Shown here piece after piece: positions 1 through 28,164 of a stretch of DNA of 32,000 bases. This stretch comes from Candidatus Altimarinota bacterium. GTDB lineage: Bacteria > Patescibacteriota > Gracilibacteria > UBA1369. The notes under the pieces are model-generated. The model was not told the DNA's origin and did not search any database. It saw only the letters and a program-made list of their open reading frames with translations. Position 1 is the stretch's first letter; each line of letters starts with the position of its first letter. The position numbers were made by a program, and so were the translations under genes. The stretch covers positions 120,001 through 152,000 of the forward strand of contig JBAZYK010000001.1 of assembly GCA_041659405.1 (NCBI GenBank), given 5' to 3'.

Positions 1-1959
1 AGTCAGGGACAAATTATTGGCGAAGTTGATCCAAATACCGGAAAAGTTATTTTGAAGGATAACCGCTATCATTTGGAAGTTTTGCCTGCAGAAAGGCCTC
101 TTTTGCCAACTCGTATTGTTACCAAAGAAACAGCCACCGGCCTAATTATCAATACGATGCTGCTGATTCCGGATGCGAATACAGATACCACAATCGATAA
201 ACCGGATCTGGTTTATAACTCCACCGGTGTTGGCATATTCAATGGTGTTCATGCCAAAGATGGAAATACTTTTGATGAGTTTGAATATAATAAAATTCCT
301 TCCGATGATGCCAATTATCCGGGTGGAATTGAAATCACAGAAACAACAACCAAAAAACGGGCCGCGATTTTGGATACCGGTGGAAATTTCTATGTGCTGG
401 ATAGCCGCTTAAGCCTGCGCTTAAAAGACACTACTTCTTTGGAAGATCCGCTGGTGATTGAAATTGTTTTGAATAAAGATTCCGCAAGTACGGTTATCGG
501 CGAGTTCTATGTTGCCGTACACAGCACTAAGGGTTTGCAAATGCTGCCAAAGGCCAAGTTCCAATCTTATGTGGACCAGGCCAATAGCCGTGGACCTTTG
601 TATGACAGCGACAATGACGGCATGCCGGATCAATGGGAACTTATTTATGGCTTAAGTCCAAAAGATCCTACCGATGCCGGCAAAGATAACGACAACGATG
701 GTCTGACCAATCTGGAAGAATATCGCGCAAGCACTTCTCCACTTAATCCGGATACAAACGGTGATGGCATTTCTGATGGTGATGAATTGAAATATGGCCG
801 TGCTCCTGGCAAAAAACTGGTTCTGCCTTACAGCGATATTGCGCAAAATCATCCTTACTATGAAAGTATTTTCAAGTTGTGGATTCGTCGCATTTTTGAA
901 GGAATTCCGGGCTGGGGAAAGCAGTTGTTTGAACCTGATTCTTATCTTACACGTGCCGAATATGCGGACTTAATGTTGAAGATTTTCTGTATTATTCCGC
1001 GTAAGGAAGCCTATGACGGCCCTTCACCTTTTAATGATGTACCGTATGTAAAAGGCCAATTGCCATGGTATTACGCCATTATCAAAGAAGCTTTTTTCCA
1101 GGGTTTTGTTACAGGTTATCTTAAAGATGCTAAACAAATTCCTTACAAACCAAATGGCACTATTTCACGCGCGGAAGCGGTTAAAGTGATTTTGGAAGCT
1201 CTACAAAAACAGGGAGTGATTGAGATGGGCCAGATTCCGGCATTACCCGCTGGAACGCCTTATTATGCGCCTTACATGCAAATTGCCCAGGATTTGACGC
1301 CTTATTTAAAGAAGGCCGGATCTGTTAAAAAGCCATTTATTGTTACTGCGGATGAAGCAGCGCGGCCGGAAGATCCATTAACAAGAGCCGGATTTTTGGC
1401 TATGGCTGACCGCGTTTTGACAACTTCGGATTGTTCGGTACTTGATGATGATCACGATGGCATGCCAAGTCACTGGGAACTATTAAATGGCTTGAACCCA
1501 CACAATGCCAGCGATGCGGCAAAAGATCCGGACCGTGATAACCTAACCAATTTGGAAGAATATAAACACGGAACCGACCCGCATAATCCGGATACGGATG
1601 CTGGTGGCGTTAATGATGGCGATGAGGTCAAGAAAAATGGCACATTCCCGCTTGATCCGGCTGATGATCATTCGCAGCCACTGATTTCCGCGCCTGCCAA
1701 TTTGCCTGATCCACGCAGTGATTTGACCGAAGGGGTCTACATTATTCAGGATCCATGCGCAACTTGTCCTTGTCCTTCGGCAATCGACCACACCGCCGAT
1801 CTGATTGTTGGTGATAAAGTTTTTGGTTTGATTTCCAATAATGACAAACTCAAGCCAATAATTTACAGCAAGAGCAACGAAGTTGAAATTACCGAAATCC
1901 CGCAGCCGGATGCCGCGGCAACGTCACATGTGATTATTGAAAAAGTCGTTCAACAATAA
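1..1959 (+). CDS. Large secreted/cell-surface protein, 5' end cut by the window edge; two Asp-rich thrombospondin-type-3-like Ca-binding modules flank three SLH-like segments
   Basis: Frame 1 is open from base 1, so the TTG at 52 in the ORF track is probably internal; stop at 1957-1959. Module 1 is DSDNDGMPDQWE..DNDNDGLTNLEEY..NPDTNGDGISDGDE (nt ~604-797). Module 2 is DDDHDGMPSHWE..DPDRDNLTNLEEY..NPDTDAGGVNDGDE (nt ~1441-1641). Between them lie YLTRAEYADLMLKIF, ISRAEAVKVILEAL and LTRAGFLAMADRVL, which resemble S-layer-homology domain cores. Confidence 0.7.
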   Translation, partial: SQGQIIGEVDPNTGKVILKDNRYHLEVLPAERPLLPTRIVTKETATGLIINTMLLIPDANTDTTIDKPDLVYNSTGVGIFNGVHAKDGNTFDEFEYNKIPSDDANYPGGIEITETTTKKRAAILDTGGNFYVLDSRLSLRLKDTTSLEDPLVIEIVLNKDSASTVIGEFYVAVHSTKGLQMLPKAKFQSYVDQANSRGPLYDSDNDGMPDQWELIYGLSPKDPTDAGKDNDNDGLTNLEEYRASTSPLNPDTNGDGISDGDELKYGRAPGKKLVLPYSDIAQNHPYYESIFKLWIRRIFEGIPGWGKQLFEPDSYLTRAEYADLMLKIFCIIPRKEAYDGPSPFNDVPYVKGQLPWYYAIIKEAFFQGFVTGYLKDAKQIPYKPNGTISRAEAVKVILEALQKQGVIEMGQIPALPAGTPYYAPYMQIAQDLTPYLKKAGSVKKPFIVTADEAARPEDPLTRAGFLAMADRVLTTSDCSVLDDDHDGMPSHWELLNGLNPHNASDAAKDPDRDNLTNLEEYKHGTDPHNPDTDAGGVNDGDEVKKNGTFPLDPADDHSQPLISAPANLPDPRSDLTEGVYIIQDPCATCPCPSAIDHTADLIVGDKVFGLISNNDKLKPIIYSKSNEVEITEIPQPDAAATSHVIIEKVVQQ

Positions 1960-5218: not shown

Positions 5219-5234
5219 GGCGACTGATGAGCTC

Positions 5235-5283
5235 ATTGGCCATAGCTGAGTGAGCGCATGCGAACGAAGCTAATATGGCCAAT
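5235..5283. repeat. GC-rich hairpin element between cluster genes 3 and 4
   Basis: Perfect 10-bp inverted repeat ATTGGCCATA / TATGGCCAAT encloses 29 nt (gctgagtgagcgcatgcgaacgaagctaa), including the palindrome CGCATGCG. No T-tract follows. The sub-motifs AGCTGAGTGAGCG and GCATGCGAACGAAGC resemble the hairpin modules of the dispersed repeat family at 6494, 6694 and 23461. Confidence 0.55.
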
Positions 5284-5351
5284 AGAGCGAAGAAGGAGCC
5301 TCAAAACGGAGAAAAAGGTAAAAAAGAATCCTCAAAAAAACTAAAAAACTT

Positions 5352-6467
5352 ATGAAAAAAACTCAACTTATTATTACCGGCCTGCTGATCTTTACCCTTG
5401 GAATCTCCCAAAATTCCGGGACGAATGGTAGTGCTAATCCAAGCTCAGTAATTTCCGCATTTTCAGAGATGCAAGTTGCCCTGGCCGCTGACCCGAATGC
5501 CGTGGCTCAATTGGGCAATGAACTCATTTGTAAAGGTGGTAGCCGTGACTGGATTGCCTTCCTTTCCGCCGTAATCAGCTATGACGATTTTGTTGAGTAC
5601 TGGCGCGATATTATTGGTATGCCCCCGGCATTTGTTAACAGCCGTTATGCCGCCAACTATTGTCTATTTTTGGATGTTGATAACCTTTTAAACAGGGTCA
5701 AAAAGGCCCGTGAACAGCTGCGTAAAGCCTTTTATGCCTGTGATCCAAACTCAGCCTCATTTAAAAAAACATATTATCGCCTGGAAGCGGAACTTTTCTT
5801 TTTACGAAAATATATTAACGTGAGCAGTGGTACGATAATTCCGGTAAATGAACAAAAAGTTTACGACCAACTAAGCGCATATTATGTTTTAGATAAGAAC
5901 GCATTCACTAAAGATGAAATCAAACTGCTTTTTGATCAATTGAAATCAAAATATGCGGCACGCATGGAAAGTTACATCCAATGTAAAGATCCCGGATGGG
6001 AAGATCTAATGTTAAAAATTAGAGAATTAAGGGATAACGTAAAAGGTGGTTTTGGCATAAAAGAGGCAGCCGAAACCATTAAAAACAGCTTCAATAAAGT
6101 TATCAATACTCCACTAAAAAGATCCGGAAACTTTCTTGGGGGGCTTTTGGATGGCAAAATCAATGGGGTCAGTCCATTACAGGCCTGGGGTGACATTATG
6201 CAGGAAATCAGTAGCAATGCGCCAACCGGTTATTCTTTTGATCGATTACAAACTGCCACAGTTACGGAGCAGTCCAGATATGACAATGCCATTCAAAAAG
6301 CAACCTATTTGGCTCAGTACGAAGCACTTTATAAGAATAGCTCCGCCGAAATTTTCTCCAGTATTATGGACCGTTTGACCAGTCTGGAGGGAATTATTAC
6401 CAAGACCTTCAACTACATGAATCAAACCACCCAGTGCGCAAAGGGCTTGTTGGATAAGGCGTGCTAA
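5352..6467 (+). CDS. Secreted hypothetical protein, cluster paralog 4 (371 aa)
   Basis: Signal peptide MKKTQLIITGLLIFTLGISQ. Motifs YCLFLDVDN and YDNAIQKATYLAQYEALYKN. C-terminus ...TTQCAKGLLDKAC. Confidence 0.75.
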   Translation: MKKTQLIITGLLIFTLGISQNSGTNGSANPSSVISAFSEMQVALAADPNAVAQLGNELICKGGSRDWIAFLSAVISYDDFVEYWRDIIGMPPAFVNSRYAANYCLFLDVDNLLNRVKKAREQLRKAFYACDPNSASFKKTYYRLEAELFFLRKYINVSSGTIIPVNEQKVYDQLSAYYVLDKNAFTKDEIKLLFDQLKSKYAARMESYIQCKDPGWEDLMLKIRELRDNVKGGFGIKEAAETIKNSFNKVINTPLKRSGNFLGGLLDGKINGVSPLQAWGDIMQEISSNAPTGYSFDRLQTATVTEQSRYDNAIQKATYLAQYEALYKNSSAEIFSSIMDRLTSLEGIITKTFNYMNQTTQCAKGLLDKAC

Positions 6468-6493
6468 CAAGGTGGTAATGGCGTTGCAAGCAA

Positions 6494-6533
6494 AGCTCAG
6501 CTTGCGATAGAAATGAACACTTCGTGCATGGTG
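6494..6533 (+). repeat. Dispersed GC-rich repeat, family 1, copy A
   Basis: AGCTCAGCTTGCGATAGAAATGAACACTTCGTGCATGGTG. About 30 of 37 aligned positions match copy C (23461) by eye. Lies immediately 3' of the 5352-6467 CDS. Confidence 0.7.
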
Positions 6534-6545
6534 ACATAAAAAAAA

Positions 6546-6570
6546 CCCCTAATGACATAGGAGTTTTTTT
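6546..6570 (+). terminator. Possible weak rho-independent terminator after the secreted-protein cluster
   Basis: AAAAA-CCCCTAatgacaTAGGAG-TTTTTTT. The stem is short and imperfect (one mismatch), but a T7 tract follows. Confidence 0.4.
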
Positions 6571-6693
6571 AAGGCTTTCTAGGGCTTATAGTTAAAGTTC
6601 TTTCTGCAGCTTAGCGCTTTTACAAGCGTTTTCCCAATCGGGCTTCCGAAAAATGATTCGGTTGTCCCTTCCTCCCGGGCCATTTTTGGAGAG

Positions 6694-6735
6694 GAGCTTG
6701 CTCCGCTCGCGGTAGAAGTAAGCACTTCGCGCGTG
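6694..6735 (+). repeat. Dispersed GC-rich repeat, family 1, copy B
   Basis: GAGCTTGCTCCGCTCGCGGTAGAAGTAAGCACTTCGCGCGTG. About 32 of 37 aligned positions match copy C by eye. Embedded in a GC-rich non-coding island. Confidence 0.7.
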
Positions 6736-6824
6736 GAGGATGGTTTAAGCTACATAGTCCCAGGGCGGTGGCCCAGACGACGGGACGCGCTCATGCGCAC
6801 TTGCCAATTCAGTTTTGGCAGGGC

Positions 6825-16433: not shown

Positions 16434-17424
16434 TATTTTTAAGAATAAGTTCCGGCTTGACTTGGCTTTTTTTAGCCATTTTCAAGGTCGTTTCCCCACT
16501 TAAAACCAGGGCGCTTGTGATCCCGTAATCGTTGGCGCCTTTTATGTCTGTGTAAAGGCGATCGCCGATCATGATCATCTCGTTTTTGGTGCATTTAAGT
16601 CGTTTTTGGAGTTGCTGGTAAATGATTGGCTGCGGCTTGCCAATGATGACGGGCTTGCGGGTGGTTGCGCGCGCCTTGGTTGCGTCTCCCTCTTTAGCCT
16701 GATTGGTCGCAGAGAAAGCTGTTTCAAAGGCATTTAGCAATGTGCCAATATCAGGATGAAATCCATCGGTAGTGGGCACAAGCGTGTCCGGATGAGTCGC
16801 ATAAAAAGGCACTCCGGCCATGATGTAATCGTAAGCGATGCAGAATTTTTGGTAATTGAAAGTGGTGTCAAAAGTAAGAACTACTGCTTGAGGCAGGGCT
16901 TTCGAGCGCGCAGAACTTTCTTTAAAAAAGCTGATCGCTGAACTCATTTCCGGGTCAGGTCGTTGCGCATTATGCGCCGTTGATTTTTTTGAAGATTGTG
17001 ATGAATGCGTGTGCGCGCGCACAGATTCATGGCTGTTTTCTGGCTTATTTAAGCTATTTTGAGTTTTATTTTCTTCGTCAAGCTTTATAAGTTCAAATCC
17101 CGCCTCTACAAATTCACGCTCAACTTCCGGCGTGGCCATTAAAAAAATCCTGCGCAAACCTTGCTGCTGTAGATATTCAATCGTTGCATTCAGACTCGTA
17201 TAGATTTCATCTTCTTTTGGAGCCAGCCCAATTTTGTTTAGCTTCTGCAGATATTCGGCTGTGCTTTTGGAAGAATTATTACTCAAAAAAATCGGTTTGC
17301 GCCCGCTATCACGCAAAGTTTTAATAAATTTTTTAGTGTATGGGAAAAGTTTAGAACCGCGGTAAAGCGTTCCATCCAAATCCAACAAAAAATATTTTTT
17401 ATACTGGAGAATAGAATTTGGCAC
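16411..17424 (-). CDS. HAD-superfamily subfamily IIA hydrolase (NagD/UmpH-like sugar phosphatase) with a ~50-aa low-complexity insert
   Basis: YFLLDLDGTLYRGSKLFPYTKKFIKTLRDSGRKPIFLSNNSSKS (DxDGT motif I plus the SNNS motif), GKPQP and MIGDRLYTDI (motif IV). Confidence 0.85.
   Translation of the reverse strand: MPNSILQYKKYFLLDLDGTLYRGSKLFPYTKKFIKTLRDSGRKPIFLSNNSSKSTAEYLQKLNKIGLAPKEDEIYTSLNATIEYLQQQGLRRIFLMATPEVEREFVEAGFELIKLDEENKTQNSLNKPENSHESVRAHTHSSQSSKKSTAHNAQRPDPEMSSAISFFKESSARSKALPQAVVLTFDTTFNYQKFCIAYDYIMAGVPFYATHPDTLVPTTDGFHPDIGTLLNAFETAFSATNQAKEGDATKARATTRKPVIIGKPQPIIYQQLQKRLKCTKNEMIMIGDRLYTDIKGANDYGITSALVLSGETTLKMAKKSQVKPELILKNIGEIINF
17002..17030. repeat. Family 2 GC-rich palindrome inside the HAD CDS
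   Basis: TGAATgcgTGTGCGCGCGCACAgATTCA. The 18-mer TGTGCGCGCGCACAGATT (17010-17027) is identical to 12011-12028. Translated in frame as HESVRAHTH inside the insert. Confidence 0.75.
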
Positions 17425-21632: not shown

Positions 21633-23450
21633 ATGAATGATACCAAGCAAAAATCACCGGAAGAAGAAGAGCTCCACGGCATGCGCCATACTTGCTCGCA
21701 TATGCTGGCGCAGGCGATTTTGGAAATGTTTCCGGATGCCAAGTTGGCGATTGGGCCAACCATTGAAAATGGCTTTTATTATGATTTTGATTTGCCGCGA
21801 ACTTTGATTCCGGAAGATTTGGAACTTTTACAGGGAAAAATGGAAAGAATCGCTAATGAAAGACAAATTTTTGAAAGATTGGAAGAGCCTGTTGAAAAAG
21901 CGATCGAGTTTTTTAAGAAAGTTGGACAGCCTTATAAAATGGAAATTGCGTCGGATCTTAAAGATGGAGGTGAAAAAATCGTGACCTTCTATGAGAACCG
22001 TTTGCCGGCTAATTATAAAGGTAAAAGCGGTAATCCCGGTGATCTTAAATTTTCGGATTTGTGTCGCGGTGGGCACACTGAAAATACCGGAAAAACAGGT
22101 GTATTTAAGTTAACAAAAATTGCCGGAGCGTACTGGCGCGGTGATGAAAAACGTCCGATGTTACAGCGTATTTATGGTGTTTGTTTTAAGACCAAACAGG
22201 AACTCCATGATTATTTACAACATCTGGAAGAAGCCAAAAAACGCGATCATCGCAAACTCGGCAAAGAACTTGAACTCTTTACGATTATTGACGAAATTGG
22301 CCCGGGCATGCCGCTTTTTTATCCTAAGGGCGCAATTTTAAGACGCACTTTGGAAAACTATATTACCGAATTGCAGGAACGACGTGGTTATTTGCCGATC
22401 TGGATCCCACATATCACCAAAGGCCGTCTTTATGAAATTTCCGGACATCTGCAAAAATATGACGCAATGTATCCGCCAATGTCTTTGCAGGATGAGGCTG
22501 ATTATTATTTGAAGCCGATGAACTGTCCGCATTTTATGATGCTTTATAAGAGTTTGCCGCATTCTTACCGTGATCTTCCGGTGCGTTATGTTTGCACGAC
22601 CACCAATTATCGCTATGAAAAATCCGGAGAATTGAATGGACTGACCCGCGTTCGCGCGCTGACACAGGACGATTGTCATGTGTTTATGCGACCGGATCAG
22701 ATCGGGCAGGAGATTAATTTGATGCTGGATATGGTTGCGGATGTTTATAAAACTTTTGGTTTTAATGATTTCTGGGTGCGCATTTCTACGCATGATCCTG
22801 CCAATAAAGAAAAATATATCGGCGATCCCGAGATTTGGAAAAACAGTGAAGCGGCGCTACAAGACTTGATTGAAAAACGTGGTTGGAAGCATGAAATCGG
22901 CGTGGGAGAAGCGGCTTTCTATGGACCTAAACTGGACTTTATTTTCAAAGATGTTTTGGGCCGTGACTGGCAACTTTCCACGATTCAGTTGGATATGAAT
23001 TTGCCGCAAAGATTTGACCTTGAATATGTAACTGCTGAAGGTGGCAAAGAAAGACCGGTAGTTGTCCACAGGGCTATTCTTGGCTCTACTGAACGCTTTT
23101 TAGGTATTTTGATTGAGCACTTTGGTGGTTCTTTCCCAACCTGGTTGGCTCCACTTCAGGTGATGATTTTGCCGGTTTCGGAAAAGCATCTTGAATATGG
23201 TCGAAAACTGCATGAAGATTTTTTGGACAAAGGCATTCGCGTTGAAATAGACGAAAACAATGAAAGCCTTGGCAAAAAAATTCGCGCGGCCGAACTTAAA
23301 AAAGTGCCTTACATGCTGATCGTGGGCGACAAGGAAGTGGAAAGTGGTGACGTTTCCGTCCGCAGCAGAAAGACCAAAGATCAAACTACAATGAGTAAGG
23401 ATGAGTTTGCGTCAAAGATTCTGGAGGAAACAAAGACCAGAAGTTTGTAA
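21633..23450 (+). CDS. thrS: Threonine--tRNA ligase, lacking the N-terminal TGS domain
   Basis: HGMRHTCSHMLAQAILEMFPDAKLAIGPTIENGFYYDFD (editing/SAD HxxxH region), class II core motifs (YLKPMNCPHFMMLY, RVRALTQDDCHVF, GEAAFYGPKLDF), and the anticodon-binding tail. Confidence 0.95.
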   Translation: MNDTKQKSPEEEELHGMRHTCSHMLAQAILEMFPDAKLAIGPTIENGFYYDFDLPRTLIPEDLELLQGKMERIANERQIFERLEEPVEKAIEFFKKVGQPYKMEIASDLKDGGEKIVTFYENRLPANYKGKSGNPGDLKFSDLCRGGHTENTGKTGVFKLTKIAGAYWRGDEKRPMLQRIYGVCFKTKQELHDYLQHLEEAKKRDHRKLGKELELFTIIDEIGPGMPLFYPKGAILRRTLENYITELQERRGYLPIWIPHITKGRLYEISGHLQKYDAMYPPMSLQDEADYYLKPMNCPHFMMLYKSLPHSYRDLPVRYVCTTTNYRYEKSGELNGLTRVRALTQDDCHVFMRPDQIGQEINLMLDMVADVYKTFGFNDFWVRISTHDPANKEKYIGDPEIWKNSEAALQDLIEKRGWKHEIGVGEAAFYGPKLDFIFKDVLGRDWQLSTIQLDMNLPQRFDLEYVTAEGGKERPVVVHRAILGSTERFLGILIEHFGGSFPTWLAPLQVMILPVSEKHLEYGRKLHEDFLDKGIRVEIDENNESLGKKIRAAELKKVPYMLIVGDKEVESGDVSVRSRKTKDQTTMSKDEFASKILEETKTRSL

Positions 23451-23460
23451 TCGCAAATAA

Positions 23461-23504
23461 AGCTCGCTCAGCTTGCGGTAGAAATAGGCACTTCGCGCGT
23501 GCTT
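23461..23504 (+). repeat. Dispersed GC-rich repeat, family 1, copy C (best-preserved copy)
   Basis: AGCTCGCTCAGCTTGCGGTAGAAATAGGCACTTCGCGCGTGCTT. Two small hairpin modules (AAGCTcgctcAGCTT; AGCACttcgcgcGTGCT). Occupies most of the 61-nt gap between convergent thrS and the 158-aa ORF. Confidence 0.75.
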
Positions 23505-23511
23505 GAATAAA

Positions 23512-23988
23512 TTAAGCAACGTCTGATTCATCGTCCGCTCTGTCATCATCTGGAGATTGCTCAGCTTCATCAACTGAACCTGCTTTCGGTGGAGTTGTTG
23601 ATGGGCGTACCCGACTGATCGGTCCTCCTTGTCCGTGAATTTTTTCTCTGGTTTCCCCACTAAGCCTTTTGATCGTTCTGAGCACCTTTGCATTATCCTT
23701 CTCTGTTCTACCGGGAATTCCGGAAATCCCTTTTAAGAGCAAAATTCTTTCTGCTTGCGTCAAGCCTTTGGATAACTGATCATTAGTTAAAAATGCAGCA
23801 AATGATTCTTGGTCGATAGGTTTATAGAAACTATGGTTATGTCTATTACGCAAAGCTAGAGCCTTGATACGGGCCTGTTGATAAGCCACTAGGTCAATTG
23901 GGTATCTATCCACCCCACTTTGGGGAGATTCATCATCGCGCCCACTTTCCGGGCCTTGTTTTTCAGGTGATGTATTTCCATGGTTCAT
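23512..23988 (-). CDS. Hypothetical protein (158 aa) with disordered acidic termini
   Basis: ATG-initiated ORF downstream of the 724-aa ORF on the same strand (118-nt gap). No recognisable domain. Confidence 0.55.
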   Translation of the reverse strand: MNHGNTSPEKQGPESGRDDESPQSGVDRYPIDLVAYQQARIKALALRNRHNHSFYKPIDQESFAAFLTNDQLSKGLTQAERILLLKGISGIPGRTEKDNAKVLRTIKRLSGETREKIHGQGGPISRVRPSTTPPKAGSVDEAEQSPDDDRADDESDVA

Positions 23989-26466: not shown

Positions 26467-28164
26467 ATGGTTAAGCATTTTCAAAAAATAAGCACTTCGT
26501 GCGTGCTTGATGAAGTGATTGAGTTATTGTGGTTAACGGTTGTTTTTGCTTTACCCTTGGTCTTTTTGCCGAGTCTTTACACCACCTTTGAAATACCAAA
26601 AGTGGTGCTTTTTAGGGTGGTGACCTGGATTATGCTTTTGCTGTTTTTGATCAGGATCGGCAGGCATGGGATGAAATTTGGCAGGTCAAAAATGATCAAA
26701 TGGCTTTGGATTTTTGGCGGAGCGTTTTTGACTTTTTATCTATTGGCGACAATCTTTTCGACGTCACCGATTGTTAGTATTTTCGGCTTTTATCCACGCT
26801 TTCAGGGGCTTTATACTTTTTCGTGTTATGTAATTTTCGCGCTGATTGTTTTTCTGCAAATTGGCTCACAGGCCGATAAAACCAGTCGCGAAACCCAAGT
26901 TCGGCGAATCATAAAAACCATTTTTATTTCGGTGAGTCTGGTTTCGGTAATTGCGCTTTTGCAAAAATTTTTGCCGGGATTTTTGGCTTTCTGGAACGAT
27001 CAGGCTTTTGAAGGCAGAATTTATGGAACCATGGCCAATCCAAATTATTTGGGCAGTATTTTGGTAATGATTATTCCGTTGATGCTGATACGGCTTGTGG
27101 AAAACGAGGAAGAATCAAAGAAAAATAGAGCCACCTCAAAAAACATTTTTACAAAAACCATGCTTGTTTTGGCGCTTCTGCTAAATTTTACGGCACTTTA
27201 TTTTACATATAGTCGCGCGGCTTTTGTGGGGCTTGCCATAGGTCTGTTTTTTGCATTTTGGGTAATGGCAAAGAAGAAACATTCACCGGGAGTATTTTGG
27301 GTAACAGTAGGAGGAATTTTGGTAATAGTTGGATTTGTGGTTGTTGTGAATCTTTTTGGGCAGAACTGGAAATCAACTTTTCTGGAGAGACTAAAATTTC
27401 AGGGTCAATATACCGTTTCCGCGGAAACCCGCCTGGAGCTTTGGCCGGCTGTAACACGCCAAATCTTGGCTAGACCTCTGCTTGGTTATGGGCCGGAAAC
27501 TTTCGCGTTAACGTTTCCAAATTTTGCCCCTAAAAATATCAACACTTCACCATTAAAAGGTGCATATCCCGACCGTGCTCACAATGAAATTCTGGATATG
27601 GCCGTGCAAATTGGCATACCCGGACTTATGGCCTATCTGGGATTTTTAATTTTATTTTTCGTTATCGCGACAAAAAAAATCATCAATGATAAAAGCCAAT
27701 CATCCTGGTATTATTTGGGATTATTAAGCGGAATTCTGGCCCTGTTTGTTTCCAATCAATTCGGATTTTCGGTTACCACGTTGTGGGTTTATTTCTTTCT
27801 GTTTGTGGCTGTATTGCTGCAATATCTACCGCCTGACGATAACAGCAAGAAGCTTGCTCAGCGGCTGTTTGCAAAATCAAAGCCGACTATCCCGGACACT
27901 TCGCACTCGGCTGTTGGCCTCGTCGAAATGGGTACTTCGCGCATGCGGATAAATATTTTTTTCAAAATCATATTTGTTTTATTGGTACTTGGTGCGGGAT
28001 CCTGGTTTGTCTTTTTTCATGATGTGCGCCTGATTGAAGCGGATCTTTTGTATCGAAAAGGAGTAGACATATCAAACAATAATCCCGATAATCATAATTC
28101 TGAAGTTTATAGTCAATACCTGCAAAAAGCGGCTTTGTTACAGCCAGATCAGTATCAACGATGA
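26467..28164 (+). CDS. O-antigen ligase/polymerase-like (Wzy_C-type) polytopic membrane protein with a C-terminal soluble tail
   Basis: Multiple TM helices. YSRAAFVGLAIGLFF and PDRAHNEILDMAVQIGIPGL resemble the O-antigen-ligase domain loop (H-N-x-x-L...G). The start is uncertain: ATG 26467 preferred over TTG 26449, and GTG 26515 is also possible. Confidence 0.8.
   Translation: MVKHFQKISTSCVLDEVIELLWLTVVFALPLVFLPSLYTTFEIPKVVLFRVVTWIMLLLFLIRIGRHGMKFGRSKMIKWLWIFGGAFLTFYLLATIFSTSPIVSIFGFYPRFQGLYTFSCYVIFALIVFLQIGSQADKTSRETQVRRIIKTIFISVSLVSVIALLQKFLPGFLAFWNDQAFEGRIYGTMANPNYLGSILVMIIPLMLIRLVENEEESKKNRATSKNIFTKTMLVLALLLNFTALYFTYSRAAFVGLAIGLFFAFWVMAKKKHSPGVFWVTVGGILVIVGFVVVVNLFGQNWKSTFLERLKFQGQYTVSAETRLELWPAVTRQILARPLLGYGPETFALTFPNFAPKNINTSPLKGAYPDRAHNEILDMAVQIGIPGLMAYLGFLILFFVIATKKIINDKSQSSWYYLGLLSGILALFVSNQFGFSVTTLWVYFFLFVAVLLQYLPPDDNSKKLAQRLFAKSKPTIPDTSHSAVGLVEMGTSRMRINIFFKIIFVLLVLGAGSWFVFFHDVRLIEADLLYRKGVDISNNNPDNHNSEVYSQYLQKAALLQPDQYQR
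26488..26508 (+). repeat. Family 1 repeat, partial copy D (3' module only) inside the 5' end of the CDS
   Basis: ATAAGCACTTCGTGCGTGCTT, translated as ISTSCVL in the gene frame. Confidence 0.6.
27904..27948 (+). repeat. Family 1 repeat, copy E, inserted in frame inside the O-antigen-ligase-like CDS
   Basis: CACTCGGCTGTTGGCCTCGTCGAAATGGGTACTTCGCGCATGCGG. The 3' 22 nt match copy C at about 19 of 22 positions by eye. Translated as HSAVGLVEMGTSRMR between the ligase core and the last TM helix. Confidence 0.65.

Follow-up and report, generated by a model that had tools for sequence, protein, structure and literature searches.

What is the GC-rich sequence that fills the gap between thrS, which encodes threonyl-tRNA synthetase, and the convergent open reading frame (ORF) downstream of it, and how is it related to similar sequences in other genes and gaps of the same genome? 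The gap lies within a 32,000 nt stretch of DNA (the window; C1:120001-152000 of the genome G000). The original prediction described its contents as one copy, here called copy C, of a dispersed palindromic repeat that is read in a single conserved phase, extends the thrS frame past its stop, and resembles RPEs, the in-frame palindromic repeats of Rickettsia. These ideas were assessed across G000, this bacterium's genome, a MAG of 1.51 Mb that is 98.5% complete and assembled into 21 contigs (C1-C21), using as a reference the full assembly of G001, a genome of the same genus that is ~75% identical to G000.

A dispersed family of 45 nt repeats

An nhmmer search of G000, iterated from the three best window copies, converged after four rounds on a 43 nt model with the consensus GAGCTCGCTCCGCTCGCGGTAGAAATAGGCACTTCGTGCGTGg; the family consensus is GAGCTCGCTCCGCTCGCGGTAGAAATAGGCACTTCGTGCGTG. 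The whole genome contained 46 copies at E<=1e-3, and 77 matches at E<10, with a sequence-only covariance model returning 50 matches. The weak, sub-threshold nhmmer matches shared the orientation of their contig's copies in 23 of 26 cases, which suggests most are real degenerate copies; there are ~25 weaker copies besides the 46 significant ones, and the total copy number is put at about 50-70. The family is real, and well beyond chance: rather than few copies in random orientation, scanning the genome and its relatives identified 46 copies by nhmmer, or 50 by the covariance model, in G000 and none in G001, with 45 of the 46 in the orientation common to their contig.

The copies were unevenly spread, with contig C1 containing 18 of the 46 relative to an expectation of seven (p=1e-4), and none of those in G000 was within 600 nt of a tRNA gene. 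No Rfam family matched the repeat when the whole window was searched at E<=1, which yielded a single chance match to mir-129, and no tRNA genes were found in the window. Nor was any described equivalent of the 45 nt element found in Rfam, or in the published literature searched. Table-11 ORFs cover 89% of G000, and therefore TGA is a stop codon in this genome.

A core flanked by a direct repeat

The repeat unit consists of a 40 nt non-palindromic, GC-rich core and a flanking 5 bp direct repeat (~WTGGA), making 45 nt. In a logo of 31 ungapped copies, the informative positions extend from -1 to 42, followed by a dip at 43-45; the TGGA at -2..2 recurs at 44-47, an offset of exactly 45 nt. The left flank is conserved as WTGGA, and the right flank repeats the left one in a copy-specific manner. 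Among the 20 best copies, the flanking pentamers (-3..2 and 43..47) were identical in six, relative to 1.25 expected by shuffling partners (permutation test, p=8e-5 for exact matches and p=0.003 per base), whereas the signal was diluted over all 37 full-length copies (p=0.06). These identical pairs were ATGGA, three times, and the non-consensus TTGGA, GAGGA and TTTGA. From the sequences, the flanking repeat is probably best read as a 5 bp target-site duplication at ~WTGGA around a 40 bp core, although it could alternatively be a terminal redundancy of the element itself. An increment of 45 bp (40 + 5) per event is indicated by the combination of the period-45 flank repeat with the copy-specific matching of the flanks. 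In some copies, the direct repeat runs into the element's own first bases, as with the ATGGAACT present on both sides at C12:27557.

No terminal inverted repeats were evident in the consensus, the 5' end of which (GCTCGCTCCGC) is unrelated to the reverse complement of its 3' end (CACGCACGAAG). RNAalifold assigned 0 consensus pairs across the 31 copies, and no hairpins; with copy C folding no better than its shuffles, the description of the repeat as palindromic was not borne out. Two copies, at C4:20805-20859 and C11:35362-35427, have an extra 12-23 nt between the halves of the core, with CCTCATAAAAATAGG common to both, and may represent a longer subfamily or parental form.

Copies and other repeats in the window

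All significant copies in the window are on the plus strand. Of the five positions proposed, four (6494, 6694, 23461 and, for the partial copy, 26488) were recovered as significant matches, whereas the match at 27904 was reduced to 21 nt with an E value of 0.23. Neither the profile nor the covariance model recognised the GC-rich sequences at 5245, 10942 and 19605 that had been put forward as related modules, and the 37 nt sequence first offered as a consensus proved to be that of copy C itself, with one match at <=3 mismatches.

Copy A (6489-6536, plus strand; nhmmer E 3.5e-7 for 6495-6531) aligns to model positions 7-43, its 5' end having diverged. It lies 21 nt past the stop of the gene at 5352-6467, just before that gene's own hairpin and T-run (6538-6570); in the alignment, G001 lacks copy A but retains the AAACCCCTAA..GGAGTTTTTT hairpin. 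Copy B (6691-6740, plus strand; nhmmer E 5.9e-12 for 6694-6736) has its core at 6696-6735 between perfect direct repeats of GAGGA (6691-6695 and 6736-6740), and is absent from the orthologous site in G001.

The predicted intragenic copies were less clear. The partial copy at 26484-26506 (plus strand; nhmmer E 5.2e-4; covariance model 23.6 bits) corresponds to the 3' half of the element, model positions 21-43, and is found at the 5' end of a gene with a Pfam Wzy_C (O-antigen-ligase-like) match, called as 553 aa in other assemblies. It overlaps an alternative start, GTG 26503, and is not clearly intragenic because it is at or before this start, which another gene caller uses. Further into the same gene, a possible old, degenerate copy at 27925-27945 (plus strand; 21 nt; E 0.23) is not significant alone, and is plausible only because weak matches genome-wide keep their contig's orientation (23 of 26).

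The window contains further repeats. The GC-rich imperfect palindrome at 5219-5351 (CATTGGCCATAGCT ... AGCTAATATGGCCAATAG), intergenic and preceding the gene at 5352, is not part of the 45 nt family. At 10901-11123, in the gap after a gene encoding a 963 aa protein, a 41 nt inverted repeat (83% complementary) surrounds a 141 nt GC-rich core. A second repeat family, at 12011-12040, 14861-14890 and 17010-17039, comprises a 14 bp perfect palindrome, TGTGCGCGCGCACA (variant TGTGCCCGGGCACA), followed by GATTT. Positions 1-1959 are the end of a giant 5,316 aa ORF that continues ~14 kb upstream on C1, and has internal direct repeats with an 840 nt period (616-723 and 1456-1563).

Copy C does not extend thrS

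The thrS gene (21633-23450, plus strand; 605 aa) ends with the stop TAA at 23448-23450, and the convergent ORF (23512-23988, minus strand; 158 aa) has no Pfam match and no G001 counterpart. Between them, copy C occupies 23457-23506 on the plus strand (nhmmer E 1.5e-12, matching 23461-23501; covariance model 55.3 bits). Its 40 nt core at 23462-23501 is bordered by flanks, ATAAA (23457-23461) and CTTGA (23502-23506), that are no longer alike. The stretch at 23451-23510 reads, from the TAA stop of thrS, tcgcaaata and then AAGCTCGCTCAGCTTGCGGTAGAAATAGGCACTTCGCGCGTGCTTGAATAAA, after which comes the convergent ORF's stop. In a repeat search, copy C clustered with 6495-6540 and 6700-6745, and the matches at 26486 and 27926 were to its 3' half.

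The peptides originally quoted are correct translations. The ELAP frame of the element is in phase with thrS at copy C, and the run-on frame after thrS does terminate at a TAA (23508-23510), with 1 nt separating it from the stop of the convergent ORF (23512-23514). Nevertheless, the claim that copy C extends the thrS frame fails on comparison with G001. The gene has 80% nucleotide identity to its orthologue up to the stop, and both proteins end in ...TRSL*; hence the thrS stop is ancestral, older than the insertion, and therefore copy C does not extend thrS. The gap between the convergent stops is 61 nt in G000 and 16 nt in G001, a difference of 45 nt, with the downstream gene differing in G001. 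It had also been proposed that copies following a stop keep the phase of the upstream gene. This is true of copy C with thrS, and of copy A with the gene at 5352-6467, but genome-wide the same-strand post-stop copies are divided between phase 0 (3/6) and phase 1 (3/6), and therefore the phase match at thrS carries no weight.

Neither strand of copy C folded better than shuffled sequences (z +0.46 and +0.89), and a scan for terminator-like sites found none; hence neither test provided evidence of a terminator role. Two other public assemblies (Logan contigs) hold this locus, and both are 100% identical to the window, including the element, its flanks and the convergent protein, such that no presence/absence polymorphism of copy C was seen in these two contigs. 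Copy C is an ordinary intergenic copy, without effect on thrS.

Copies are read in four frames of unrelated genes

Using simple codon-score gene calls (1,322 genes in G000), ORFs contained 31 of the 46 copies, relative to a coding density of 89%, meaning copies are ~3-fold enriched in intergenic DNA. Of those in ORFs, 12 fall in the first 40 codons and could be upstream of the true start; the other 19 are deeper. Relative to the host gene, 13 are sense and 18 antisense. Rather than the one conserved phase originally described, four of the six frames are used (14/8/5/4/0/0): antisense THEVPISTASGASS in 14 copies, sense ELAPLAVEIGTSCV in eight, sense GARSARGRNRHF in five and antisense RTKCLFLPRAERA in four. 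The stop-free antisense frame HARSAYFYRERSEL and the TAG-containing sense frame were unused, and the bias is evident among the antisense frames alone (chi-square p=1.7e-4). That the stop-containing frame is never used argues that the inserts are probably translated, rather than removed.

The hosts include alanyl-tRNA synthetase (AlaRS), MurG, an IspE-like GHMP kinase, aspartokinase and CoaBC, as well as RsmE, a GlmU-like transferase, a DEAH helicase, a U32 peptidase and a DUF4147/MOFRL kinase. The inserts are mostly between Pfam domains, or cut one domain match in two, and in AlaRS the insert interrupts the alignment with the human and bacterial enzymes of solved structure. In a separate case, the copy at C21:3483-3522 overlaps a gene's 3' end and, read in the stop-containing frame, provides the last residues and stop of that gene (..INWSSLHSQ*), such that the element has replaced the C terminus. 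In annotation, the copies account for unusual loops of 12-17 residues, and N-terminal extensions, in the housekeeping proteins of G000.

An old burst seen in a single species

The element is absent from G001 at all 12 of the 12 orthologous sites that were aligned as DNA, and nearly all of ~25 host proteins have G001 orthologues without the segment. In AlaRS, for instance, G000 has PLKN-GAHSARTNDDGHSVPG-CHANCECGRY where G001 has PLKDG--SGR--CHANCECGRY. These empty sites do not fix the edges of the element, because at ~75% identity the length differences are 24-99 nt, rather than a clean 45. Among 40 relatives, the covariance model had a single match in G006, four half-matches in G016 and none in G001; when 150 genomes of the order, from 91 genera, were scanned, G000 was alone in showing an expansion. 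Scanning public genome and metagenome contigs with GAAATARGCACTTYGYGCRTG found single chance matches in unrelated taxa, for example Nitrotoga and Acidobacteriota. As far as searched, these sequence comparisons suggest that the family is confined to this species.

Mean identity to the consensus was 0.83-0.85, alike in deep intragenic, 5'-proximal and intergenic copies, and 108 of the 203 substitutions relative to the consensus were G>A or C>T. No pair of copies was identical, the maximum pairwise identity being 0.95. Because there are no identical copies, and the other assemblies of the copy C locus are 100% identical, mobility is deduced rather than observed. The copies stem from an old burst, which postdates the divergence from G001, and are being eroded by AT pressure.

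Relatives (G016, L003, L005, L007 and L009; G006, L002) have GC-rich modules that are longer than the element, resemble it in the 5' half alone, ATGGAGCTCGCTYCGCTCGCGGT, and are stacked beside tRNA genes. G006 has one full-length look-alike in a tRNA-Pro leader, with TGGTGCT on both sides. These tRNA-adjacent modules may be the stock from which the 45 nt family arose.

Orientation is uniform over large blocks of the chromosome

Orientation was uniform per contig in 45 of the 46 copies (simulation P<5e-6), with plus and minus counts of 17/1 on C1, 0/5 on C4, 5/0 on C11, 3/0 on C5 and 2/0 on each of five further contigs. It stays uniform across G000 contigs bridged by synteny with G001, forming blocks of 100-300 kb, and bears no relation to the strand of the host genes (13 sense, 18 antisense).

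This polarity was compared with GC skew, taken at 4-fold degenerate sites as an average of genes on both strands. The element's strand is G-rich in rev(C17)-rev(C12)-C1, C9-C20-C4, C13-C8 and C5 (764 kb, 32 copies), where skew is mostly weak (|0.09-0.17|, except C9 and C20). It is C-rich in C2-rev(C19)-rev(C7), C3-C11, C10-rev(C15) and rev(C18)-rev(C6)-rev(C21)-C16 (712 kb, 14 copies), where skew is mostly strong (|0.22-0.39|, except the short C18 at 0.10, and with C19 unscored). The orthologous G001 contigs have the same two-fold difference in raw skew (0.049 and 0.133); the difference is thus also found in an element-free genome, and therefore predates the element. No skew switch or internal turning point was found within any G000 contig, and dnaA, at C7:48.8 kb, is mid-contig in uniformly skewed DNA. 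Considering contigs regardless of the element, skew at 4-fold sites is bimodal, with a weak class (about |0.10-0.17|) of ~700 kb, which includes the window, and a strong class (|0.22-0.39|) of ~780 kb.

Two near-equal halves with opposite relations to skew are the expectation if all copies are on one physical strand. Block-wise founder effects, or a past change in replication direction, are possible sources of the same pattern. One version of the latter, in which an origin shift reversed replication of the weak-skew half, was rejected, as copies with 83% identity to the consensus would have been erased in the time the skew needs to change sign; a scenario in which the reversal preceded the insertions is possible. 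It is a doubtful proposal that all copies are on the same physical strand around the chromosome, leading in one replichore and lagging in the other, and that this and the two-fold skew difference both reflect a chromosome-wide single-strand asymmetry exploited by the element's insertion machinery. The orientation biases of IS200/IS605, IS91, IS110 and Tn7 (TnsE) follow the direction of replication (PMC3971601).

Discussion

The copies are probably, with a likelihood we put at around 0.7, the fossils of a miniature, non-autonomous, strand-specific insertion element, which is RPE-like but much smaller. A 40 bp GC-rich core, lacking terminal inverted repeats and hairpins, would have been inserted at ~WTGGA with a 5 bp target duplication, such that each insertion would add exactly 45 bp, or 15 codons. 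As the added length is a multiple of three, insertion would never shift the reading frame. These insertions would have occurred after the split from the sequenced congener G001, with the copies since decaying through G>A and C>T changes. Within genes, copies would survive only where the frame was stop-free and a 15-residue loop, mostly small and polar, was tolerable, with others persisting at gene ends or in intergenic gaps; this filter is suggested by the frame spectrum, the ~3-fold intergenic enrichment and the positions of inserts between Pfam domains. Copy C would be one such insertion, in the gap between thrS and the convergent gene. Strand-specific insertion would imply an enzyme that acts on one DNA strand, or reads a chromosome-scale polarity, as orientation is uniform over blocks of 100-300 kb.

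Seven Pfam families searched in G000 yielded no candidate for the mobilising enzyme: Y1/RAYT, rve, DDE_Tnp_1, RVT_1 and the TnpB zinc ribbon were absent, and the recombinases found were two tyrosine recombinases and one sub-threshold, resolvase-like match. The RAYT-like mobiliser that had been suggested was looked for as PF01797, which had 0 matches in G000, although control genomes do match. An insertion sequence at a contig break is possible, because the assembly is 98.5% complete but fragmented.

Small repeats fused in frame with host ORFs include RPEs, BOX/RUP, ERIC and BRE (PMC10969869, PMC3184786). RPEs, as those two articles summarise Ogata et al. 2000, are palindromic, ~105-150 bp, and in-frame within host ORFs. 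The analogy with RPEs holds in part. Both are dispersed, lineage-restricted, selfish repeats found in frame in unrelated housekeeping genes, the ORFs of which are kept open; both add a peptide segment, both are also intergenic, and for neither is a mobilising enzyme known. In-frame presence in unrelated genes is supported by the 31 of 46 copies in ORFs, 19 of them more than 40 codons from the start, and by G001 lacking the segment. The analogy fails for the palindrome: rather than a hairpin unit of 105-150 bp, the element is 45 bp with 0 consensus pairs and no stable fold, and furthermore has a 5 bp flank duplication and is strand-polar. The host is a CPR-type bacterium, not Rickettsia, and the likeness to RPEs is one of behaviour.

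Similarly partial resemblances apply to other classes. Like MITEs, the element is small, non-coding and multi-copy, with a short target-site duplication, seen as the 5 bp flank repeat with a 45 nt period (p=8e-5 in the 20 best copies), and MITEs too are sometimes fused in frame to host ORFs. However, it lacks terminal inverted repeats, at 40 bp is below the usual MITE size, and has no parent insertion sequence or transposase detected in the 21 contigs of the 98.5% complete G000. Unlike REPs and REPINs, it is not palindromic, RAYT is absent, and two thirds of copies are in ORFs rather than extragenic; inverted pairs are absent because copies on one contig keep one orientation. Chromosome-scale orientation polarity, and a preferred 4-5 nt target on the left flank, are shared with IS200/IS605 and REP/RAYT, PATEs and Tn7 with TnsE, and Tn7 also makes 5 bp duplications (PMC3971601, PMC5027513). 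Yet G000 has no Y1/HUH transposase or rve (TnsB-type) gene, and the element has no subterminal hairpins; IS200/IS605 make no duplication, whereas the 45 nt element has a copy-specific right-flank repeat; and those known cases follow the sign of the skew throughout, whereas the 45 nt element agrees with it in about half of the genome and opposes it in the other. The MIRUs of mycobacteria, as PMC3184786 reports from Supply et al. 1997, are 40-100 bp units in ~40-50 copies, with short ORFs in phase with flanking genes. They resemble this family in unit size, copy number, and an in-phase idea reminiscent of that first raised for thrS. MIRUs are intergenic, and often tandem within operons. The 45 nt family, by contrast, has no tandem arrays and two thirds of its copies in ORFs, and is in phase in 3/6 post-stop cases. 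The element is best filed as a selfish in-frame repeat that fails the definitions of RPE, MITE and REP/RAYT.

Alternatively, the copies might be functional polar signals of the chromosome, similar to KOPS or Chi, or sites for a strand-specific DNA-handling protein, maintained by the host. An orientation that is uniform over large blocks (45/46), independent of gene strand, and a core conserved over 42 positions would fit such a role, which is nonetheless unlikely given that the element is absent in G001, with no expansion in 150 genomes of the order, and that only ~50-70 uneven copies (18/46 on C1, relative to 7 expected; p=1e-4) decay equally inside and outside genes. Known polar chromosome signals, in contrast, are 8-mers present in hundreds of copies. 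Similarly improbable is the idea that the copies are templated patches, copied as breaks were repaired or replication restarted from a small template that was either RNA or extrachromosomal, with the flank repeat an overrun of a 45 nt circular template. This would explain the lack of a transposase, the direct repeats that enter the element's first bases (ATGGAACT at C12:27557; TGGTGCT in G006), and a strict strand polarity that fits a replication-linked process. However, the assembly contains no template locus or longer master copy, and no longer parent element is seen despite two copies having internal extras of 12-23 nt. To our knowledge, there is no documented precedent for such a mechanism generating a family of this kind.

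It is highly unlikely that the copies have a role in RNA, whether as intrinsic terminators, stabilisers, leaders or small RNAs, with copy C terminating both thrS and the convergent gene. Seven of the ~15 intergenic copies are in convergent gaps, shortly past stop codons, and the single G006 copy is in a tRNA-Pro leader, as such a role might predict, but there is no Rfam match or consensus structure, copy C folds like its shuffles (z +0.46, +0.89) with no terminator-like site, copy A adjoins a gene's own conserved hairpin and T-run, and most copies are within ORFs, on either strand relative to the gene. It is barely credible that the family is a selected peptide module (ELAPLAVEIGTSCV-like) common to proteins. 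Eight intragenic copies are read in the ELAPLAVEIGTSCV frame, but 23 are in three other frames, 18 of these being antisense, such that the frame spectrum already contradicts this explanation; 15 copies are intergenic, the similarity is at the DNA level and accompanied by a flanking duplication, and the orthologues lack the segment.

The past activity of a miniature, strand-specific insertion element therefore remains the preferred reading. New features are the copy-specific flanking duplication, the lack of a match to any known transposase family searched, and an orientation that is uniform per contig in 45 of the 46 copies. The element would be the smallest known mobile insert to colonise essential genes in frame, adding 15 codons per event, and would extend the RPE phenomenon both to ultra-small CPR bacteria and to a non-palindromic element. 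The 45 bp increment, 5 bp duplication and absence of a recognisable transposase provide a lead to an undescribed mechanism of insertion. The near-perfect polarity, which does not track the sign of GC skew in the usual way, makes the family a marker for the replication of these uncultured genomes. Were the doubtful single-strand asymmetry true, it would point, for example, to unidirectional or rolling-circle replication, or a transfer phase, that exposes one strand in these CPR bacteria.
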